DNA of 64,000 bases from an uncultured delta proteobacterium (lineage in GTDB: Bacteria; Desulfobacterota; Syntrophia; Syntrophales; UBA2185), in NCBI GenBank assembly GCA_963729715.1, contig CAVSPA010000005.1, positions 416,001 to 480,000 on the forward strand, read 5' to 3'. The translations under genes were made by a program, and so were the position numbers. The notes beneath the pieces are model-generated. The model was given only the letters and a program-made list of their open reading frames with translations. It did no database searches and had not been told where the DNA came from. This document shows, piece by piece, positions 8,550-14,835 of the stretch (its first letter is position 1; every line of letters starts with the position of its first letter).

Positions 8550-8981
8550 TTATTTTCTTTCCAGCGTCATTTTTAGACCGTCACTGTCATCAATTACAAT
8601 CTTATTGCAGTCCTTGCTCATCTCCACTTTACCATCTGACCAATCCTTATCGGGTCGGGTTATCTGAACTTTTTTAATCCCGTCCTTATCTAATTCACCA
8701 CGTATCTTTTCTGTGCCTGCTGGTGTAAATCCGGTGGATATCAACGATTTCCCGACGAACTTATCACCTCGCTGCGTTATCTTTATCAGACTCTTGATAC
8801 TTCCAAAATGCTGCATCGATCCGTAAGGTTCATATAATGTGTTCCACTCGCCATTGAGATTACAAACCAACTCACCACTTGGAAGTCTTGCAGTATTCTT
8901 CTCCGTTTGGGAATAAGCGATGGATGTAAAAGCCAACAGGACAACAAGAATAAATAGAAATGAAAAGATTTTTCTTGCCAT
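8550..8981 (-). CDS. Hypothetical exported protein (predicted beta-rich)
   Basis: Signal peptide, LNGEW motif, two Cys; AGAGG RBS. Confidence 0.7.
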   Translation of the reverse strand: MARKIFSFLFILVVLLAFTSIAYSQTEKNTARLPSGELVCNLNGEWNTLYEPYGSMQHFGSIKSLIKITQRGDKFVGKSLISTGFTPAGTEKIRGELDKDGIKKVQITRPDKDWSDGKVEMSKDCNKIVIDDSDGLKMTLERK

Positions 8982-9103: not shown

Positions 9104-9916
9104 TTATCTCTTAAGATTGTAAACCGCTGTGGTCTCTGTCCAGTCCGTAAGTTCGATCTGGTTCAACCTCCGGACAAGGTCGCTGACCATTCCCGTCGAC
9201 TTTGCATCATAGACCTCAAAAATCCCTTCTCTGAAACCGATGGAAAGTAGCTCCTGTTTCTGCCGGGTCGCGATGAGCTTGATTCTTTCTTCAGCAGAGG
9301 CGTCCTTGTAGTTAGGCAGGAACATGGCTTTCAGATGAATAGGGTTGTCTGCCGGAGGGAATTGGTATGCCCTTCCCGCTCTCGTAAAATTATCCGGCAT
9401 ATTCGAATTGGGGAGAAGGAGAGTAACGGAGCCGTCTAGAGCAATGGAAAAAATATAGACATAAGAGTCTCCGCTTACCTGATAGAATACCTTTACTTCA
9501 TCTCCTTCCTTCAGGTCTGTCTTCGAGAGCGACAGTCTTGCGGAGAGGCCTTCCCCTTTCTCAGGATACACGGGTTCGATCAGGGCTTTGATTTTTATTC
9601 TGTAGAGGTTTCTCTCTTTTGCATCCCAATCCGATGCGATGATTACTTCCTTCGTGATCTTTCCCCTGACAGCGGCGTAGATCAGGTCTTCGGCAATCTG
9701 GCTGTTGGAGACTAATGTGTGGGCTCTAATGAATGTACCGACCGCACTTTCTATCGCCTTGCTCTCGGCATCCCGCTTGGCTCTGTCCTTTACCTCCTTC
9801 AGTGTATCCATCTCCGATTGATACGATGTGCCGTCAGCCGTAAACCAAAGGGGCTTATCAGCAGAAGCCTCAAGAGGGATCAGGAGGAAGGCCATGACAA
9901 AGAGTATTTTTTTCAT
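9104..9916 (-). CDS. Exported DUF4384-domain protein with FlgT_N/LPP20-like N-terminal domain
   Basis: Signal peptide MKKILFVMAFLLIPLEASA; KEGDEVKVFYQVSGDSYVYIFSIALDGSVTLLLPN and ERIKLIAT are DUF4384-like; ATG 9916 with GAGG RBS. Confidence 0.75.
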   Translation of the reverse strand: MKKILFVMAFLLIPLEASADKPLWFTADGTSYQSEMDTLKEVKDRAKRDAESKAIESAVGTFIRAHTLVSNSQIAEDLIYAAVRGKITKEVIIASDWDAKERNLYRIKIKALIEPVYPEKGEGLSARLSLSKTDLKEGDEVKVFYQVSGDSYVYIFSIALDGSVTLLLPNSNMPDNFTRAGRAYQFPPADNPIHLKAMFLPNYKDASAEERIKLIATRQKQELLSIGFREGIFEVYDAKSTGMVSDLVRRLNQIELTDWTETTAVYNLKR

Positions 9917-9924
9917 AAAACCCC

Positions 9925-11322
9925 TCAATTCTTCTTCGCCCCAATCAACTGCGGTGTCTGTTCGTTGTTGTACTGCTTCCGAGCAATGCGCTCAACTTGA
10001 GGCTTCAGGTAGCTGAACAAGTCTGTAAGTGCAATCGAACCATCTTTTTTCACTACCTCTTCATTCTTGATTCCCTTGAGCATGAAATAAGTGAAAAGCC
10101 CGTGGCCCTTCTCCTCGTAGGTGGAGCTGATCTGGTCTCCGGACGCGGCGCTCAGAACAGCCACTTTCTTCGGAATTGATTCGCTGCTCATCGTCATAAC
10201 CAAAGGCCTCGCGCCCTTGGCAATCACGCTGCGTCCACCGGCTCCGGAGAAGCACGAATCAAGCGCCACGATAATCTCCTTCGCGGGAAGTTTTCCGAGT
10301 GCATCATAGAGCCTTCTCAGAGAATATCCGGTTTCCCCGATAAATGCCGGATCTCCGTCATACGGAACGAGATAGGCGTCACCCGTCTTGGGATTCGGCG
10401 CACCGTGCCCGGAATAATAAACAAACACCGTACCGCCTTTTTCGACATTGTTAGGCAGCCATTTTTCGAAATATTTTACGAAGTCTCCCAGGGCGGCAAG
10501 GTCATTCGTAAGGGTTACAACGTTCTCTTCCGGATAGCCCATCGCCTTTGTGAGATATTCCGTCACCGTCTTGGCATCGGCTGCCGCGAAGTCGGCCTTG
10601 GGCAGCTTTTGGCGGTATTGCTCGATGCCGATGACTATCGCATATGCTTTGCTGTTCTGCCGTGCCTGTGCATTAGAGGGAAGAGAGATATCCGTTTGAT
10701 CCGGAGCGGGAACAGTCTTCTGCGGCTGCGCCGTGACAATCGGCTTGCCATCGAAGTACGCCATTATTGCATCCGCGGGAGCATATCCCATCCGTCTCCG
10801 TCCGTCAGGAAAAATGACGGTCGGAACGCCAGTGATACTCAAAGACTGTGCGAGCGCGATAGTTTTATCGACAGCATCGCTGTTGCAGTCCCGGGCAGGG
10901 ATCGGCTTGTTTTCAAAATTATCTTCAAGCATCTGCAGAGAAGAGCTGCAAAGGATGCTTTTTGATTTCCAGTAAGCGTCTTTGTGCATTGCCAAAGGAA
11001 AGAGTCTTATATAGAAGGCAACGTCATTCCGCTCTGCCACAATTTTCTTGAGCTCTGTGTGAAGTTTCACGCAGTAAGGACAATCAGGGTCGGTAAAAAC
11101 CACGGCCTTCTTCTGTGCCGCAGGGTTCCCCATAACAAGAGCGTGTTCCATCGTAAGGTCGCTGAAAGATGCATTCGGCTGCTTGACTATGAAATCGCTC
11201 CCATAAGCGGATTGTCCATACAAAAGAACCAAGAAAGCAATCAGACAAAATGGCGCATACTTCACTGACGTAAACATGTGAACTATGTTTTTTCCTCTTG
11301 TTTTCATGCCGGCACCTCTCAT
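9925..11322 (-). CDS. Exported DsbC-like thioredoxin domain fused to a caspase-family (peptidase C14) domain
   Basis: Hydrophobic leader; VFTDPDCPYC, second Cys pair and GVPT cis-Pro loop; then AIVIGIEQY, YYSGHG (His) and LDSCFSG (Cys), GHGLFTYF, QTPQL. Confidence 0.88.
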   Translation of the reverse strand: MRGAGMKTRGKNIVHMFTSVKYAPFCLIAFLVLLYGQSAYGSDFIVKQPNASFSDLTMEHALVMGNPAAQKKAVVFTDPDCPYCVKLHTELKKIVAERNDVAFYIRLFPLAMHKDAYWKSKSILCSSSLQMLEDNFENKPIPARDCNSDAVDKTIALAQSLSITGVPTVIFPDGRRRMGYAPADAIMAYFDGKPIVTAQPQKTVPAPDQTDISLPSNAQARQNSKAYAIVIGIEQYRQKLPKADFAAADAKTVTEYLTKAMGYPEENVVTLTNDLAALGDFVKYFEKWLPNNVEKGGTVFVYYSGHGAPNPKTGDAYLVPYDGDPAFIGETGYSLRRLYDALGKLPAKEIIVALDSCFSGAGGRSVIAKGARPLVMTMSSESIPKKVAVLSAASGDQISSTYEEKGHGLFTYFMLKGIKNEEVVKKDGSIALTDLFSYLKPQVERIARKQYNNEQTPQLIGAKKN

Positions 11323-11338
11323 GCAGATTTATCCTCAA
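11271..11338. repeat. Direct repeat copy 1 (68 bp; RBS and first codons of the DsbC-caspase gene)
   Basis: taaacatgtgaactatgttttttcctcttgttttcatgccggcacctctcatgcagatttatcctcaa; matches 14767-14835 with 7 mismatches and 1 gap. Confidence 0.9.
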
Positions 11339-11493
11339 ATTGTCACGGACGCTTCCGTCCGTATCGAATTGCTTTTAGAGCTTCTACCACATATTAAGAT
11401 TTTGTAAAAATCAAAATAACTACAGAACTCTATATAAAAATATGGTAACAATATCAGCCGTGGGTCAATTAACTTTTTTAGAGGGAGTTAATT

Positions 11494-12966
11494 ATGAAAG
11501 CAGAACAGGATTCCTTCAGCAAGCGCTATGGCCTTATTATCAGTGTTGTTGTGTTATTGGGGATCATTGCAATGCCGACGCCGGAAGGACTAACGGTAGC
11601 GGGTCAGAGAATGATCGCCATGCTTATCTTTTCGATAATAATCTGGATGACCGAGGCTGTTTCCTACCCGATCAGCGCCGCCATAATCCTGGCGATTATG
11701 GTCTTCCTGCTCGGCACATCACCCGATGTTGCCAATCCCAAGGGCGTCATGGGAACTTCCAAGGGTCTCTCCCTGGCATTGGGCGGATTCAGCAACCCCG
11801 CGACTGCCTTAGTGGGCGGGGCGCTGTTTATCGCCGCCGCGATGATGCAGACCGGCCTCGACAAGCGGATCGCCTTATCCATCCTGTCTAAAATAGGGAC
11901 GAAGACTAACCGTATTCTGATTGGAGTAATTTTTGTGGGTTTCGTTCTCAGTTTCTTCATTCCCAGCACAACCGCAAGGGTCGCTTGTCTGGTTCCTATT
12001 GTAATGGGGATTATCCTGGCTCTTAATGTGGATAAAAAGAGCAAATTTGCCGGCGTCCTGATGATCGCCACCGCCCAGGCTGATAGTATTTGGAATGTCG
12101 GTATCAAAACGGCAGCCGCACAAAATATGGTTGCCATCGGCTTTATTGATAAACTTCTTAACAAACAGATTACCTGGTTCGAATGGTTTATTGCCGCCGC
12201 TCCCTTCGCCGTGATTATGTCTGTGGTCTTGTATTACGTCTTGATGAAGGTCATGCCGCCTGACACCGAGGAAATCCCAGGCAGCCGGGAAACTATCGCT
12301 AAAGCCTTGGCTGACCTTGGTCCTATGAAACTGAACGAGAAGAAGCTGTTCGCTGTATCGCTTACACTGCTATTCTTCTGGTCTACCGAAATGGTCCTCC
12401 ACAATTTCGATACCGCCTCTACGACCCTCGCTGCCGTGGCCATCATGCTGATGCCTGTTGTAGGTGTAATGACATGGAAAGAAGCACAGGCAAAAATCCC
12501 TTGGGGTACTCTGATGTTGTTCGGGATAGGCATAAGCCTTGGATCGGCTCTTCTTTCCACGAAAGCCGCTGCCTGGCTGGCTAAAATGATTGTCACCTGG
12601 TTTGGCTTACAGACCATGCCTGCCTTGACAATTCTGGCTGTCCTTGCCGCTTTCCTCATTATCATCCACCTTGGGTTTGCCAGTGCCACCGCTTTGGCGT
12701 CAGCTATGATACCGATTGTGATTTCGGTATTGCAGGAGGTAAAGATGGCGGGCATGAACGTATGGGGCATGACAATGATTTTACAGTACGTGGTGAGCTT
12801 CGGGTTTATCTTGCCGGTAAATGCGCCACAAAATATGGTGGCATACAGCACAGAAACATTTGAAGTTAAAGATTTCATGCGGACAGGCATTCCTTTAACA
12901 ATCATCGCCTATCTCGTCATTCTTCTCTTAGGGGCCACATACTGGAAGTGGCTTGGATACGTATAA
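11494..12966 (+). CDS. DASS/SLC13-family di-/tricarboxylate or anion transporter
   Basis: WMTEA, TGLDKRIAL, IPSTTAR, TAAAQN, IPWGTLMLFG, FILPVNAPQN motifs. Confidence 0.92.
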   Translation: MKAEQDSFSKRYGLIISVVVLLGIIAMPTPEGLTVAGQRMIAMLIFSIIIWMTEAVSYPISAAIILAIMVFLLGTSPDVANPKGVMGTSKGLSLALGGFSNPATALVGGALFIAAAMMQTGLDKRIALSILSKIGTKTNRILIGVIFVGFVLSFFIPSTTARVACLVPIVMGIILALNVDKKSKFAGVLMIATAQADSIWNVGIKTAAAQNMVAIGFIDKLLNKQITWFEWFIAAAPFAVIMSVVLYYVLMKVMPPDTEEIPGSRETIAKALADLGPMKLNEKKLFAVSLTLLFFWSTEMVLHNFDTASTTLAAVAIMLMPVVGVMTWKEAQAKIPWGTLMLFGIGISLGSALLSTKAAAWLAKMIVTWFGLQTMPALTILAVLAAFLIIIHLGFASATALASAMIPIVISVLQEVKMAGMNVWGMTMILQYVVSFGFILPVNAPQNMVAYSTETFEVKDFMRTGIPLTIIAYLVILLLGATYWKWLGYV

Positions 12967-13012
12967 GCCTCAGGAAGCCTGTATAGAAAATTTCTATAAA
13001 GGATTGAAGAAA

Positions 13013-14620
13013 ATGCAATATGACCCTTTGTATCATCCTTATCCGTCCCGGCGAAGCATGGTTTTCGCCAGGAAAGGCATGGTTGCAACTTCGCAGCCGC
13101 TTGCAGCCCAGGCGGGGCTGGAGATTCTCAAAAAAGGAGGCAATGCCATTGACGCGGCAATCGCAACTGCAGCTTGTCTGACCGTAGTTGAACCAACTTC
13201 CAACGGTATAGGCGGTGATGCTTTCGCCCTTGTGTGGAGCAAAAATAAACTTCACGGTTTGAATGCAAGCGGACCTTCGCCTAAAACTATTTCCATCGAG
13301 GCGCTAAAAAAAGCGGGACATCAGGAAATCCCGAAATACGGAATGATCCCGGTGACCGTGCCGGGAGCCCCTTCAGCTTGGGCCGAGTTGTCGAAGCGTT
13401 TTGGCAAGCTTCCCTTTGTCGAAGTATTAAGGCCCGCAATCGAGTATGCAGAGGAGGGCTTCCCGGTGTCGCCGATCATCAGCAAGCTTTGGAAAGCCGA
13501 CTTTGACAATTATAAGAAGGAACGAGCTGAAGAGTTCAAGTACTGGTTTGAAGTATTTGCTCCACAGGGAAAACCGCCAGCGGCCGGCGGGATCTGGCGG
13601 TCACCGAGACATGCGGCCACACTCAAGTCGATTGCGGAAACCAACGCCGAGGCGTTTTACCGTGGTGAACTAACCGAGAGGATCGATGTCTTCTTTAAGC
13701 AGTACAGGGGATATTTGCGCAAGGAAGACTTGGAAGCTTTTCGGCCGGAATGGGTGGAGCCGATAAAAATAAATTATCGAGGCTACGACGTCTGGGAAAT
13801 TCCACCCAACGGGCATGGCCTGGTGGCATTGATGGCCCTTAATATTTTGAAAGGGTTTGATTTCTCGGCAAAGGAAACAGTCGACACTTACCATAAACAA
13901 ATTGAGGCTATAAAACTTGCATTCGTTGATTGCCGGAAATATGTTACTGACCCGCGGCACATGACCATCAAAGTGGACGACCTGTTGTCTGATTCTTTCG
14001 CGGCAAAGCGGCGCGGCCTTATTGGTAAGCAGGCGCTCCAGCCTGCGCCCGGCCGCCCCACTGGCGGCAGTACGGTCTATCTGGCGACGGCCGACTCAGA
14101 GGGAAACATGGTGTCCTTCATTCAGAGCAATTATATGGGCTTTGGCTCGGGTCTGATCGTTCCCGGAACCGGTATCAGCCTTCATAACCGCGGGCATAAT
14201 TTCTCATTCAATGAAACGCATGACAATCGTCTTGAACCGGGAAAGAAATCTTACCATACTATCATGCCGGGCTTCTTGACCAAGGATAACGAAGCAGTGG
14301 GCCCATTTGGCGTCATGGGTGCATTCATCCAACCGCAAGGCCACCTGATGGTAGTGATGAACACAGTCGATTTTCATCTTAATCCGCAAGCGGCCCTCGA
14401 CGCGCCCCGGTGGCAGTGGGTGGAAGACAAGATAGTGGATATCGAGCACCTATTCCCGGAACATATTGCCGAAGCTTTAAATAGGCGAGGCCACGTCATC
14501 AGACGCGGTGTGGTGGGAGCAACAACCTTTGGCCGCGGTCAGATTATCTGGCGAAACAGTGAAGGTGTACTCGCCGGTGCGACAGAACCGCGAACGGATG
14601 GCGTTGTTGCAGTTTGGTAG
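13013..14620 (+). CDS. Gamma-glutamyltransferase-family Ntn-hydrolase (YwrD-like, no signal peptide)
   Basis: GMVATSQPLA, GGNAIDAAIA, GIGGDAF, nucleophile Thr in GSTVYLATAD, IQSNY.GFGSG, YHTIMPG. ATG 13013 preferred to 12953. Confidence 0.92.
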   Translation: MQYDPLYHPYPSRRSMVFARKGMVATSQPLAAQAGLEILKKGGNAIDAAIATAACLTVVEPTSNGIGGDAFALVWSKNKLHGLNASGPSPKTISIEALKKAGHQEIPKYGMIPVTVPGAPSAWAELSKRFGKLPFVEVLRPAIEYAEEGFPVSPIISKLWKADFDNYKKERAEEFKYWFEVFAPQGKPPAAGGIWRSPRHAATLKSIAETNAEAFYRGELTERIDVFFKQYRGYLRKEDLEAFRPEWVEPIKINYRGYDVWEIPPNGHGLVALMALNILKGFDFSAKETVDTYHKQIEAIKLAFVDCRKYVTDPRHMTIKVDDLLSDSFAAKRRGLIGKQALQPAPGRPTGGSTVYLATADSEGNMVSFIQSNYMGFGSGLIVPGTGISLHNRGHNFSFNETHDNRLEPGKKSYHTIMPGFLTKDNEAVGPFGVMGAFIQPQGHLMVVMNTVDFHLNPQAALDAPRWQWVEDKIVDIEHLFPEHIAEALNRRGHVIRRGVVGATTFGRGQIIWRNSEGVLAGATEPRTDGVVAVW

Positions 14621-14766: not shown

Positions 14767-14835
14767 TAAACACGTGAACTAAATTTTTTCCTCTTGCTTT
14801 TATGATGGCACCTCTCATGCAGATTTTATCCTCAA
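14767..14835. repeat. Direct repeat copy 2 (69 bp; decayed copy of the DsbC-caspase gene start)
   Basis: taaacacgtgaactaaattttttcctcttgcttttatgatggcacctctcatgcagattttatcctcaa, ending 3 bp beyond the acd stop codon. Confidence 0.9.

Follow-up and report, generated by a model that had tools for sequence, protein, structure and literature searches.

A DsbC-type thioredoxin domain as a lineage-restricted front end of a predicted exported caspase-like protease

The 64,000-nt stretch of DNA analysed here, referred to as the window (contig CAVSPA010000005.1, positions 416,001 to 480,000), carries on its minus strand an uninterrupted open reading frame at 9925-11322, encoding 465 aa from ATG 11322. 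As the first-pass annotation had claimed, Pfam and motif analysis divide its product into a leader, a DsbC-type domain, a Pro/Gln linker and a C14 protease domain. Thioredoxin_2 matches aa 70-189 (E 1.9e-17), and Peptidase_C14 matches aa 227-459 (E 3.7e-13) over profile positions 3-223 of 233. Motifs of the thioredoxin (Trx) half are FTDPDCPYC (C81/C84), a second cysteine pair (C125/C146) and GVP (V166-P167), and those of the protease half are SGHG (H306) and DSCFSG (C357). The locus is laid out as follows.

9925..11322, minus strand: fusion gene with leader, DsbC-type catalytic domain, linker and peptidase C14 (ORF and Pfam)
11296..11420, minus strand: upstream region, ribosome binding site GAGAGG (11320-11315) and first four codons, common to the ankyrin allele of G004 (alignment)
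about 11296, minus strand: front-module swap point (comparison with the G004 allele)
11200..11307, minus strand: probable Sec signal peptide, aa 6-41, cleavage after A-Y-G (from hydropathy and motif)
10747..11145, minus strand: DsbC-type Trx catalytic domain, aa 60-192, lacking the dimerisation domain (Pfam, structure matches, alignments)
11082-11071, minus strand: CPYC, in the Trx domain together with C125 and C146
10827-10822, minus strand: V166-cis-P167, in the Trx domain
10651..10746, minus strand: Pro/Gln-rich flexible linker, aa 193-224 (sequence, low pLDDT, dN/dS 0.46)
9928..10650, minus strand: peptidase C14 domain, aa 225-465 (Pfam, structure matches)
10407-10405, minus strand: protease histidine H306
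10254-10252, minus strand: protease cysteine C357, sole cysteine of the protease domain
within the peptidase C14 domain, minus strand: acidic S1-type residues D249 and D355 (alignment)
9104..9928, minus strand: cysteine-free DUF4384 partner gene, predicted exported, with a 4-nt overlap with the fusion stop codon (Pfam, loci compared)

Translation probably starts at ATG 11307, giving a 460-aa protein, rather than at ATG 11322, because GAGAGG sits 7 nt before ATG 11307 and this codon is common to all three aligned alleles, with ATG 11322 absent in L011. The leader has a hydrophobic core at aa 22-35 (11-residue Kyte-Doolittle values up to 2.95) and ends in A-Y-G, features suggesting that the protein is exported via a probable Sec signal peptide. 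Promoter and terminator scans at the locus gave hits at chance level only. The stretch 11271-11400, which holds the fusion gene's promoter, ribosome binding site and initial codons, recurs elsewhere in the genome: at C2:11891-11998, at C3:32109-32228, where it precedes another exported-protein gene, and within the window at 14767-14835, an orphan copy just upstream of an acyl-CoA dehydrogenase gene. Window 11401-13118, comprising the DASS transporter gene plus the beginning of the following gene, has a 99.8% identical copy on C3 near 266 kb (L252), which is either a recent duplication or an assembly artefact.

The Trx-caspase fusion is a genuine gene. An assembly chimera, the danger flagged by the first-pass annotation, was rejected by 31 sequences and by independent contigs that span the domain junction. 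Contig 30 of run X7 covers the whole gene in one piece (9558-11416, about 91% identity), and contigs free of differences cover the junction in X3 (10569-10723 and 10706-10856) and X2 (10703-10971). The exact 465-aa protein is also encoded on a separate Logan contig, and both domains occur together, at 88-94% identity, in six other clusters recovered from the 5.8 billion proteins searched. All 31 full fusion sequences (84-100% identity; the set includes members of four listed clusters, and two are start variants of the window's own gene) keep CPYC, SGHG and DSCFSG.

The fusion belongs to a few anaerobic sediment and peat bacteria. Intact copies occur in 3 of 22 family genomes (G000, G002 and G006) or 3 of 11 genus genomes, G008 retains a remnant, and all of these fusion-bearing genomes are of one genus. 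The G008 remnant has lost the resolving cysteine C84 along with about 2.2 kb that include the protease and partner. One other assembly carries the gene in two pieces (P0236, P0513), representing a pseudogene or an error. With proteins of up to 814 aa searched, a caspase was also present at 8 of 180 loci fetched with the Trx domain; all eight, some of them duplicated loci, fall in the fusion clade. L143 was set aside as unreliable owing to its many frameshifts. No independent Trx-caspase fusion was found among 265 family proteins or in the 180 Trx-found loci.

Phylogenies indicate a single origin, in which the catalytic half of a DsbC filled the slot once. In the Trx tree (44 of 102 rows kept) the fusions nest among DsbC relatives and form one side of a branch with support of 100/100 and a stem of 0.4 changes per site; a protease tree built by a quick method likewise places them on one side of a branch (support 99). 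The next Trx-domain matches outside the fusion clade, at 50-60% identity, are ordinary DsbC proteins with PF10411, and 113 shorter matches included no intact stand-alone copy of the fusion's Trx lineage, the close ones being broken fragments. The Trx half falls outside the dsbC clade of the host family. A horizontal donor is nevertheless not established, because the AU test (p 0.076) leaves a shared dsbC clade possible.

Both halves are under purifying selection. In pooled Nei-Gojobori estimates from five fusion orthologues, which are rough because the pairs are not independent, dN/dS was 0.18 for the Trx domain and 0.04 for protease aa 225-415, with higher values in the linker (0.46) and the leader (0.48). 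The range across four genes nearby was 0.08-0.19 (three orthologues), and the catalytic domain of the genus's ordinary dsbC gave 0.10 (seven sequences), suggesting that the fused Trx is kept slightly less tightly than a normal dsbC. Given these dN/dS values and the retained motifs, the Trx domain is not in general a decaying passenger, the G008 remnant notwithstanding.

Structural comparisons place the two halves in known classes. A search of solved structures matched the first half to DsbC proteins (E 1.7e-14) and the second to metacaspases, and Foldseek matches of the AlphaFold2 (AF2) model comprised MALT1, Geobacter GSU0716 (3BIJ), Yca1 and DsbC catalytic domains. The Trx half superimposes on the Neisseria catalytic domain (3GV1 chain B) with a TM score of 0.81. 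It shares with DsbC and DsbG (E. coli DsbC 1EEJ; Neisseria 3GV1) the catalytic fold, CxxC and second structural cysteine pair, and its nearest stand-alone relatives, 50-60% identical DsbC proteins, possess PF10411; the fusion differs in lacking the dimerisation domain, in having Val for Thr before the cis-proline and in its attached protease. Absence of the dimerisation domain, as first claimed, is borne out by the lack of a DsbC_N (PF10411) match at E<=0.1 and by a gap of ~20 aa between the leader and the first Trx strand of the model; the NCBIfam DsbC model scores 47 against a cut-off of 215.

In the AF2 model, for which the alignment was a shallow one of 23 rows, each domain is folded with high local confidence and the linker between them is disordered (5 Pro and 5 Gln in the 32 residues of aa 193-224; pLDDT under 50 in part). 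With a pTM of 0.60, this arrangement weakly suggests that there is no fixed contact between Trx and protease. A protease homodimer prediction scored 0.08, below the 0.42 mark, and hence has no bearing on dimer state either way.

The protease half has a caspase fold, with His after beta3 and Cys after beta4 (PF00656, model strands and Foldseek), and shares the His-Cys dyad and acidic S1-type residues of prokaryotic caspase homologues such as MaOC1 and GSU0716 (3BIJ). Type I metacaspases are defined as monomers with two extra strands, beta7 and beta8, between beta4 and beta5 (PMC4357240); these strands are absent from the model, yet the loop at aa 358-379 has pLDDT under 50. Orthocaspases are defined by a p20 domain without p10 (PMC6426788), from which the fusion differs in that its model contains a p10-like C-terminal part of beta5, two helices and beta6. 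The EACC1-associated caspase model NF047832 gave 85.6 bits, below its cut-off of 140; PADLOC returned only a generic caspase match for the fusion and none for the DUF4384 partner; and the whole protein fell in caspase clusters only of the ESM Atlas, at 0.76. D249 aligns with the Asp of the metacaspase 'GCIND' motif, and D249 and D355 are invariant in 29 aligned protease domains. Such residues accommodate basic P1 residues (PMC6426788, PMC4357240), and cleavage after Arg/Lys is accordingly predicted for the fusion protease.

Listings from full-text searches of open literature yielded no relevant description of a Trx-C14 fusion, in agreement with the initial impression that the architecture lacked an earlier account. 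In a 2012 survey (PMC3501461), prokaryotic caspase homologues carry varied accessory domains and N-terminal export signals, much as the fusion has a Trx domain and a predicted export signal; 'thioredoxin' is absent from the main text and metacaspase file, appearing only in the operon-neighbour file. A DsbA-like gene lies near a cyanobacterial metacaspase (PMC4933709).

The fusion is probably one rare allele of a larger, uncharacterised exported protease family with an interchangeable front module, and is not likely to be a stand-alone new system. The best 114 non-fusion matches to the protease half are 59-83% identical, with front ends that, by hand count from the Pfam column, comprise ankyrin (49), PDZ (4), DUF2846 (3), Skp/OmpH (2), cytochrome c7 (1) and none named (55). 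Among 60 scanned of the best 150 cluster representatives, 16 had a named extra domain, including TPR-PDZ, trypsin-PDZ and SecDF head front ends, and none had thioredoxin, a count to be read knowing that 50% representatives hide fused members, the fusion being absent from the 150 listed. Crude rules detect a hydrophobic N-terminus in 123 of the 144 representatives that begin with Met, and in 82 something resembling a lipobox. The fusion profile matched 3742 cluster representatives at E<=1e-30, a number that may include DsbC matches. The SD(V/I)DxLP motif usual before the protease (91 of 108 family members) is altered in the fusion. Unusual front ends on the same protease module among P0364, P0462, P0350 and P0092 are trypsin-PDZ, a second caspase domain, a SecDF head domain and a tri-haem cytochrome c7.

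Cassettes of this kind share a protease module 70-83% identical to the fusion's, the same partner, tandem paralogues and interchangeable front ends; the fusion, with its C-terminal protease, exchangeable N-terminus, adjacent DUF4384 gene and export signal predicted from hydropathy, has the same layout and differs in carrying a redox enzyme at its front. In the congener G004 the site of the fusion, again beside the DASS transporter gene, is occupied by a lipoprotein-ankyrin front end on the protease and then a DUF4384 gene, with DNA identity of 94-95% up to the fourth codon. That allele has a lipobox, whereas the fusion has a predicted soluble-type signal peptide. Other genes occupy the fusion position in G003, G009 and G010, and the site was not found in three congeners. 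Every intact fusion locus of sufficient length has the DUF4384 gene next to the fusion on its downstream side, including L142, where fusion and partner lie in a different genomic neighbourhood. Proposals that the fusion is self-contained and represents a new system are therefore unsupported, given this constant partner, a caspase half that is widespread with many front ends, and the same-site ankyrin allele.

Six further copies of the protease module (75-83% identity), three with ankyrins, lie in two arrays of the genome. These arrays, C4:693873-698570 and C6:18797-23363 (L004-L009), each hold three exported caspase paralogues with differing front ends. The C4 array lies among IS elements and an integrase; the array situated among insertion sequences comes with a DUF4384 gene, which is 89% identical to that of the window. 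The protease halves of the three C6 copies are nearly identical, suggesting gene conversion. C-terminal parts of some fusions (P0005, L141) resemble other paralogues, as expected from recombination between copies.

Chemistry of the Trx half is best read against its stand-alone relatives. CPYC is found at 121 of 142 loci of the fusion's DsbC group and, being normal there, is uninformative about the fusion. Stand-alone relatives have 55 positions with conservation of 85% or more; the fusions depart from them at seven, the most conserved of the seven being the residue before the cis-proline, which is Val in 31 of 31 fusions versus Thr in 219 of 222 relatives. According to Ren et al. 2009 (PMC2665069), the cis-Pro loop of E. 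coli DsbC contacts substrates and upstream partners, and T182V shifts the potential from -143 to -195 mV with slightly higher reductase and greatly lower isomerase activity, values measured in a dimeric enzyme with CGYC rather than a CPYC monomer. The first-pass description of GVP as 'DsbA-like' consequently holds for the letters and not for the likely effect.

Oxidising and reducing routes both exist in the host, as the genome encodes a VKOR-thioredoxin fusion and CcdA with a TlpA-like neighbour. The former (C5:732335 region; L223:805-1830) joins a VKOR-like domain to a thioredoxin with CEHC and is a probable disulfide-forming route of an anaerobe whose genome gave no DsbB match; CcdA and the TlpA-like gene are found about 6 kb from it. 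Two complete DsbC-type genes are also retained. The complete dsbC of the genus (C5:291117-292007) directly precedes what is presumably a type IV minor pilin/PilY1-like cluster, gene names being taken from motifs.

We favour, with confidence just short of an even balance, a reading in which the Trx half is a reduce-and-cut targeting module that acts in trans on disulfide-bonded targets. A role in trans is preferred because Trx stands where binding modules stand in other alleles. The constant parts of the cassette are the highly conserved C14 (clan CD) protease module and the DUF4384 partner, with the N-terminal module exchanged by recombination, as the ankyrin allele shows. Exported and tethered, the monomeric Trx would act in trans like the binding modules it replaces, engaging disulfide-bonded or mis-oxidised envelope or incoming proteins through CPYC and the cis-Pro loop. 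It would reduce rather than reshuffle target bonds, so holding or loosening targets that the neighbouring protease domain could then cut after Arg/Lys, with electrons supplied by the host CcdA/TlpA route. The same anatomy would also suit an alternative in which target binding clusters and activates the protease. Reduction of substrate disulfides was one of two functions proposed at the outset, and it gains support from the Thr-to-Val change. Several points weigh against the reduce-and-cut reading: the T182V effect comes from a dimeric CGYC enzyme, the Trx evolves faster than the genus's ordinary dsbC (0.18 versus 0.10), the cassette is broken in G008, and loss of the dimerisation domain has a price. 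DsbC without that domain has no substrate-binding cleft, and monomeric DsbC reportedly acts as an oxidase, exposed to an oxidising partner; a VKOR-thioredoxin gene is present in this genome.

That last point leads to the reading we consider very unlikely, namely that the monomerised Trx works as an oxidase or senses oxidation, with the VKOR pathway recharging it, and oxidises targets or the protease cysteine, so switching proteolysis off or on. A monomer with Val-cis-Pro is the DsbA pattern, and the genome has the VKOR-like gene. According to PMC4597128, monomeric forms of such enzymes, HP0231m among them, are accessible to DsbB, and a truncated DsbG-derived oxidase with VcP works through DsbB; in DsbA, Val favours reoxidation by DsbB (PMC2665069). 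On a DsbC scaffold, however, Val lowers the potential by about 50 mV (same source, T182V), a more reducing shift that lowers the standing of this explanation; moreover, the genome has no DsbB match and the DUF4384 partner no cysteine to oxidise. The other function proposed at the outset, that Trx acts in cis to repair or gate the lone catalytic Cys357 (a sulfenic acid or mixed disulfide) so that activity tracks envelope redox, is weakened, and we regard it as fairly unlikely. C357 is indeed the protease domain's only cysteine, protection of single cysteines is a role of DsbG and DsbC (PMC4624244), CPYC is also the DsbG motif (PMC4597128), the Val change predicts a stronger reductant (PMC2665069) and the 32-residue flexible linker may allow transient contact. 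A single cysteine is, however, found in 112 of 114 protease domains of the family (six fusions included; 6 of 120 proteins had no anchor-motif match) and in 141 of 150 members, and no Trx domain was detected in 259 non-fusion members (best E 0.023). Since other family caspases nearly all share the lone cysteine and do without Trx, including the six paralogous proteases of the same genome, Trx is not generally needed for protease protection; the two complete DsbC-type genes are also kept, and the model suggests no fixed contact, weak evidence given its shallow alignment and pTM of 0.60. Somewhat more doubtful still is loose coupling, whereby a DsbC fragment recombined into the slot as an extra envelope thiol-disulfide enzyme and soluble carrier, unlinked to proteolysis and perhaps self-processed off. 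The single origin in one genus with intact copies in 3 of 11 genomes, the decay in G008 (C84 lost, 2.2-kb deletion), the lack of independent fusions among 265 family proteins or 180 loci and the family's uptake of many unrelated domains would all suit such an arrangement. Against it, the two halves have stayed joined over a dS of 0.2-0.7 and also in another genomic neighbourhood (L142), and no intact stand-alone copy of the Trx lineage was seen among the 113 shorter matches.

Thousands of bacterial proteins share the exported caspase-like module, and our searches turned up no functional work on the family. The fusion is a real, selected, lineage-restricted variant of a known protease class, and its chief use is as an experimental handle on the wider family; its general importance is limited by narrow range and by loss in one congener. 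A CxxS mutant would allow a Trx front end to be captured together with its partners, and the role of a front end in substrate choice, signal sensing or mere anchoring is therefore directly testable. The fusion is also a natural case in which DsbC loses its dimer domain and fixes Val before the cis-proline. It is a tentative idea, one we lean against, that the gene encodes a natural single-chain reduce-and-cut or redox-sensing envelope protease, with a DsbC fragment retuned by a T182V-type change so that it acts as a reductase and directly controls or feeds the attached caspase-like protease. If so, it would be the one front end in the family with chemistry understood well enough to reveal the function of the swappable modules.

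The genes downstream of the fusion offer some further detail. The N-terminal half of the DUF4384 partner (9104-9928) is possibly FlgT_N-like: one Atlas cluster matched at 0.94, with PF16548 in 28% of its members. Window positions 8550-8981 encode a predicted exported 143-aa protein with two cysteines and no Pfam family, and its gene follows the partner in L011 and L012 and is absent in L114, L141 and L142.
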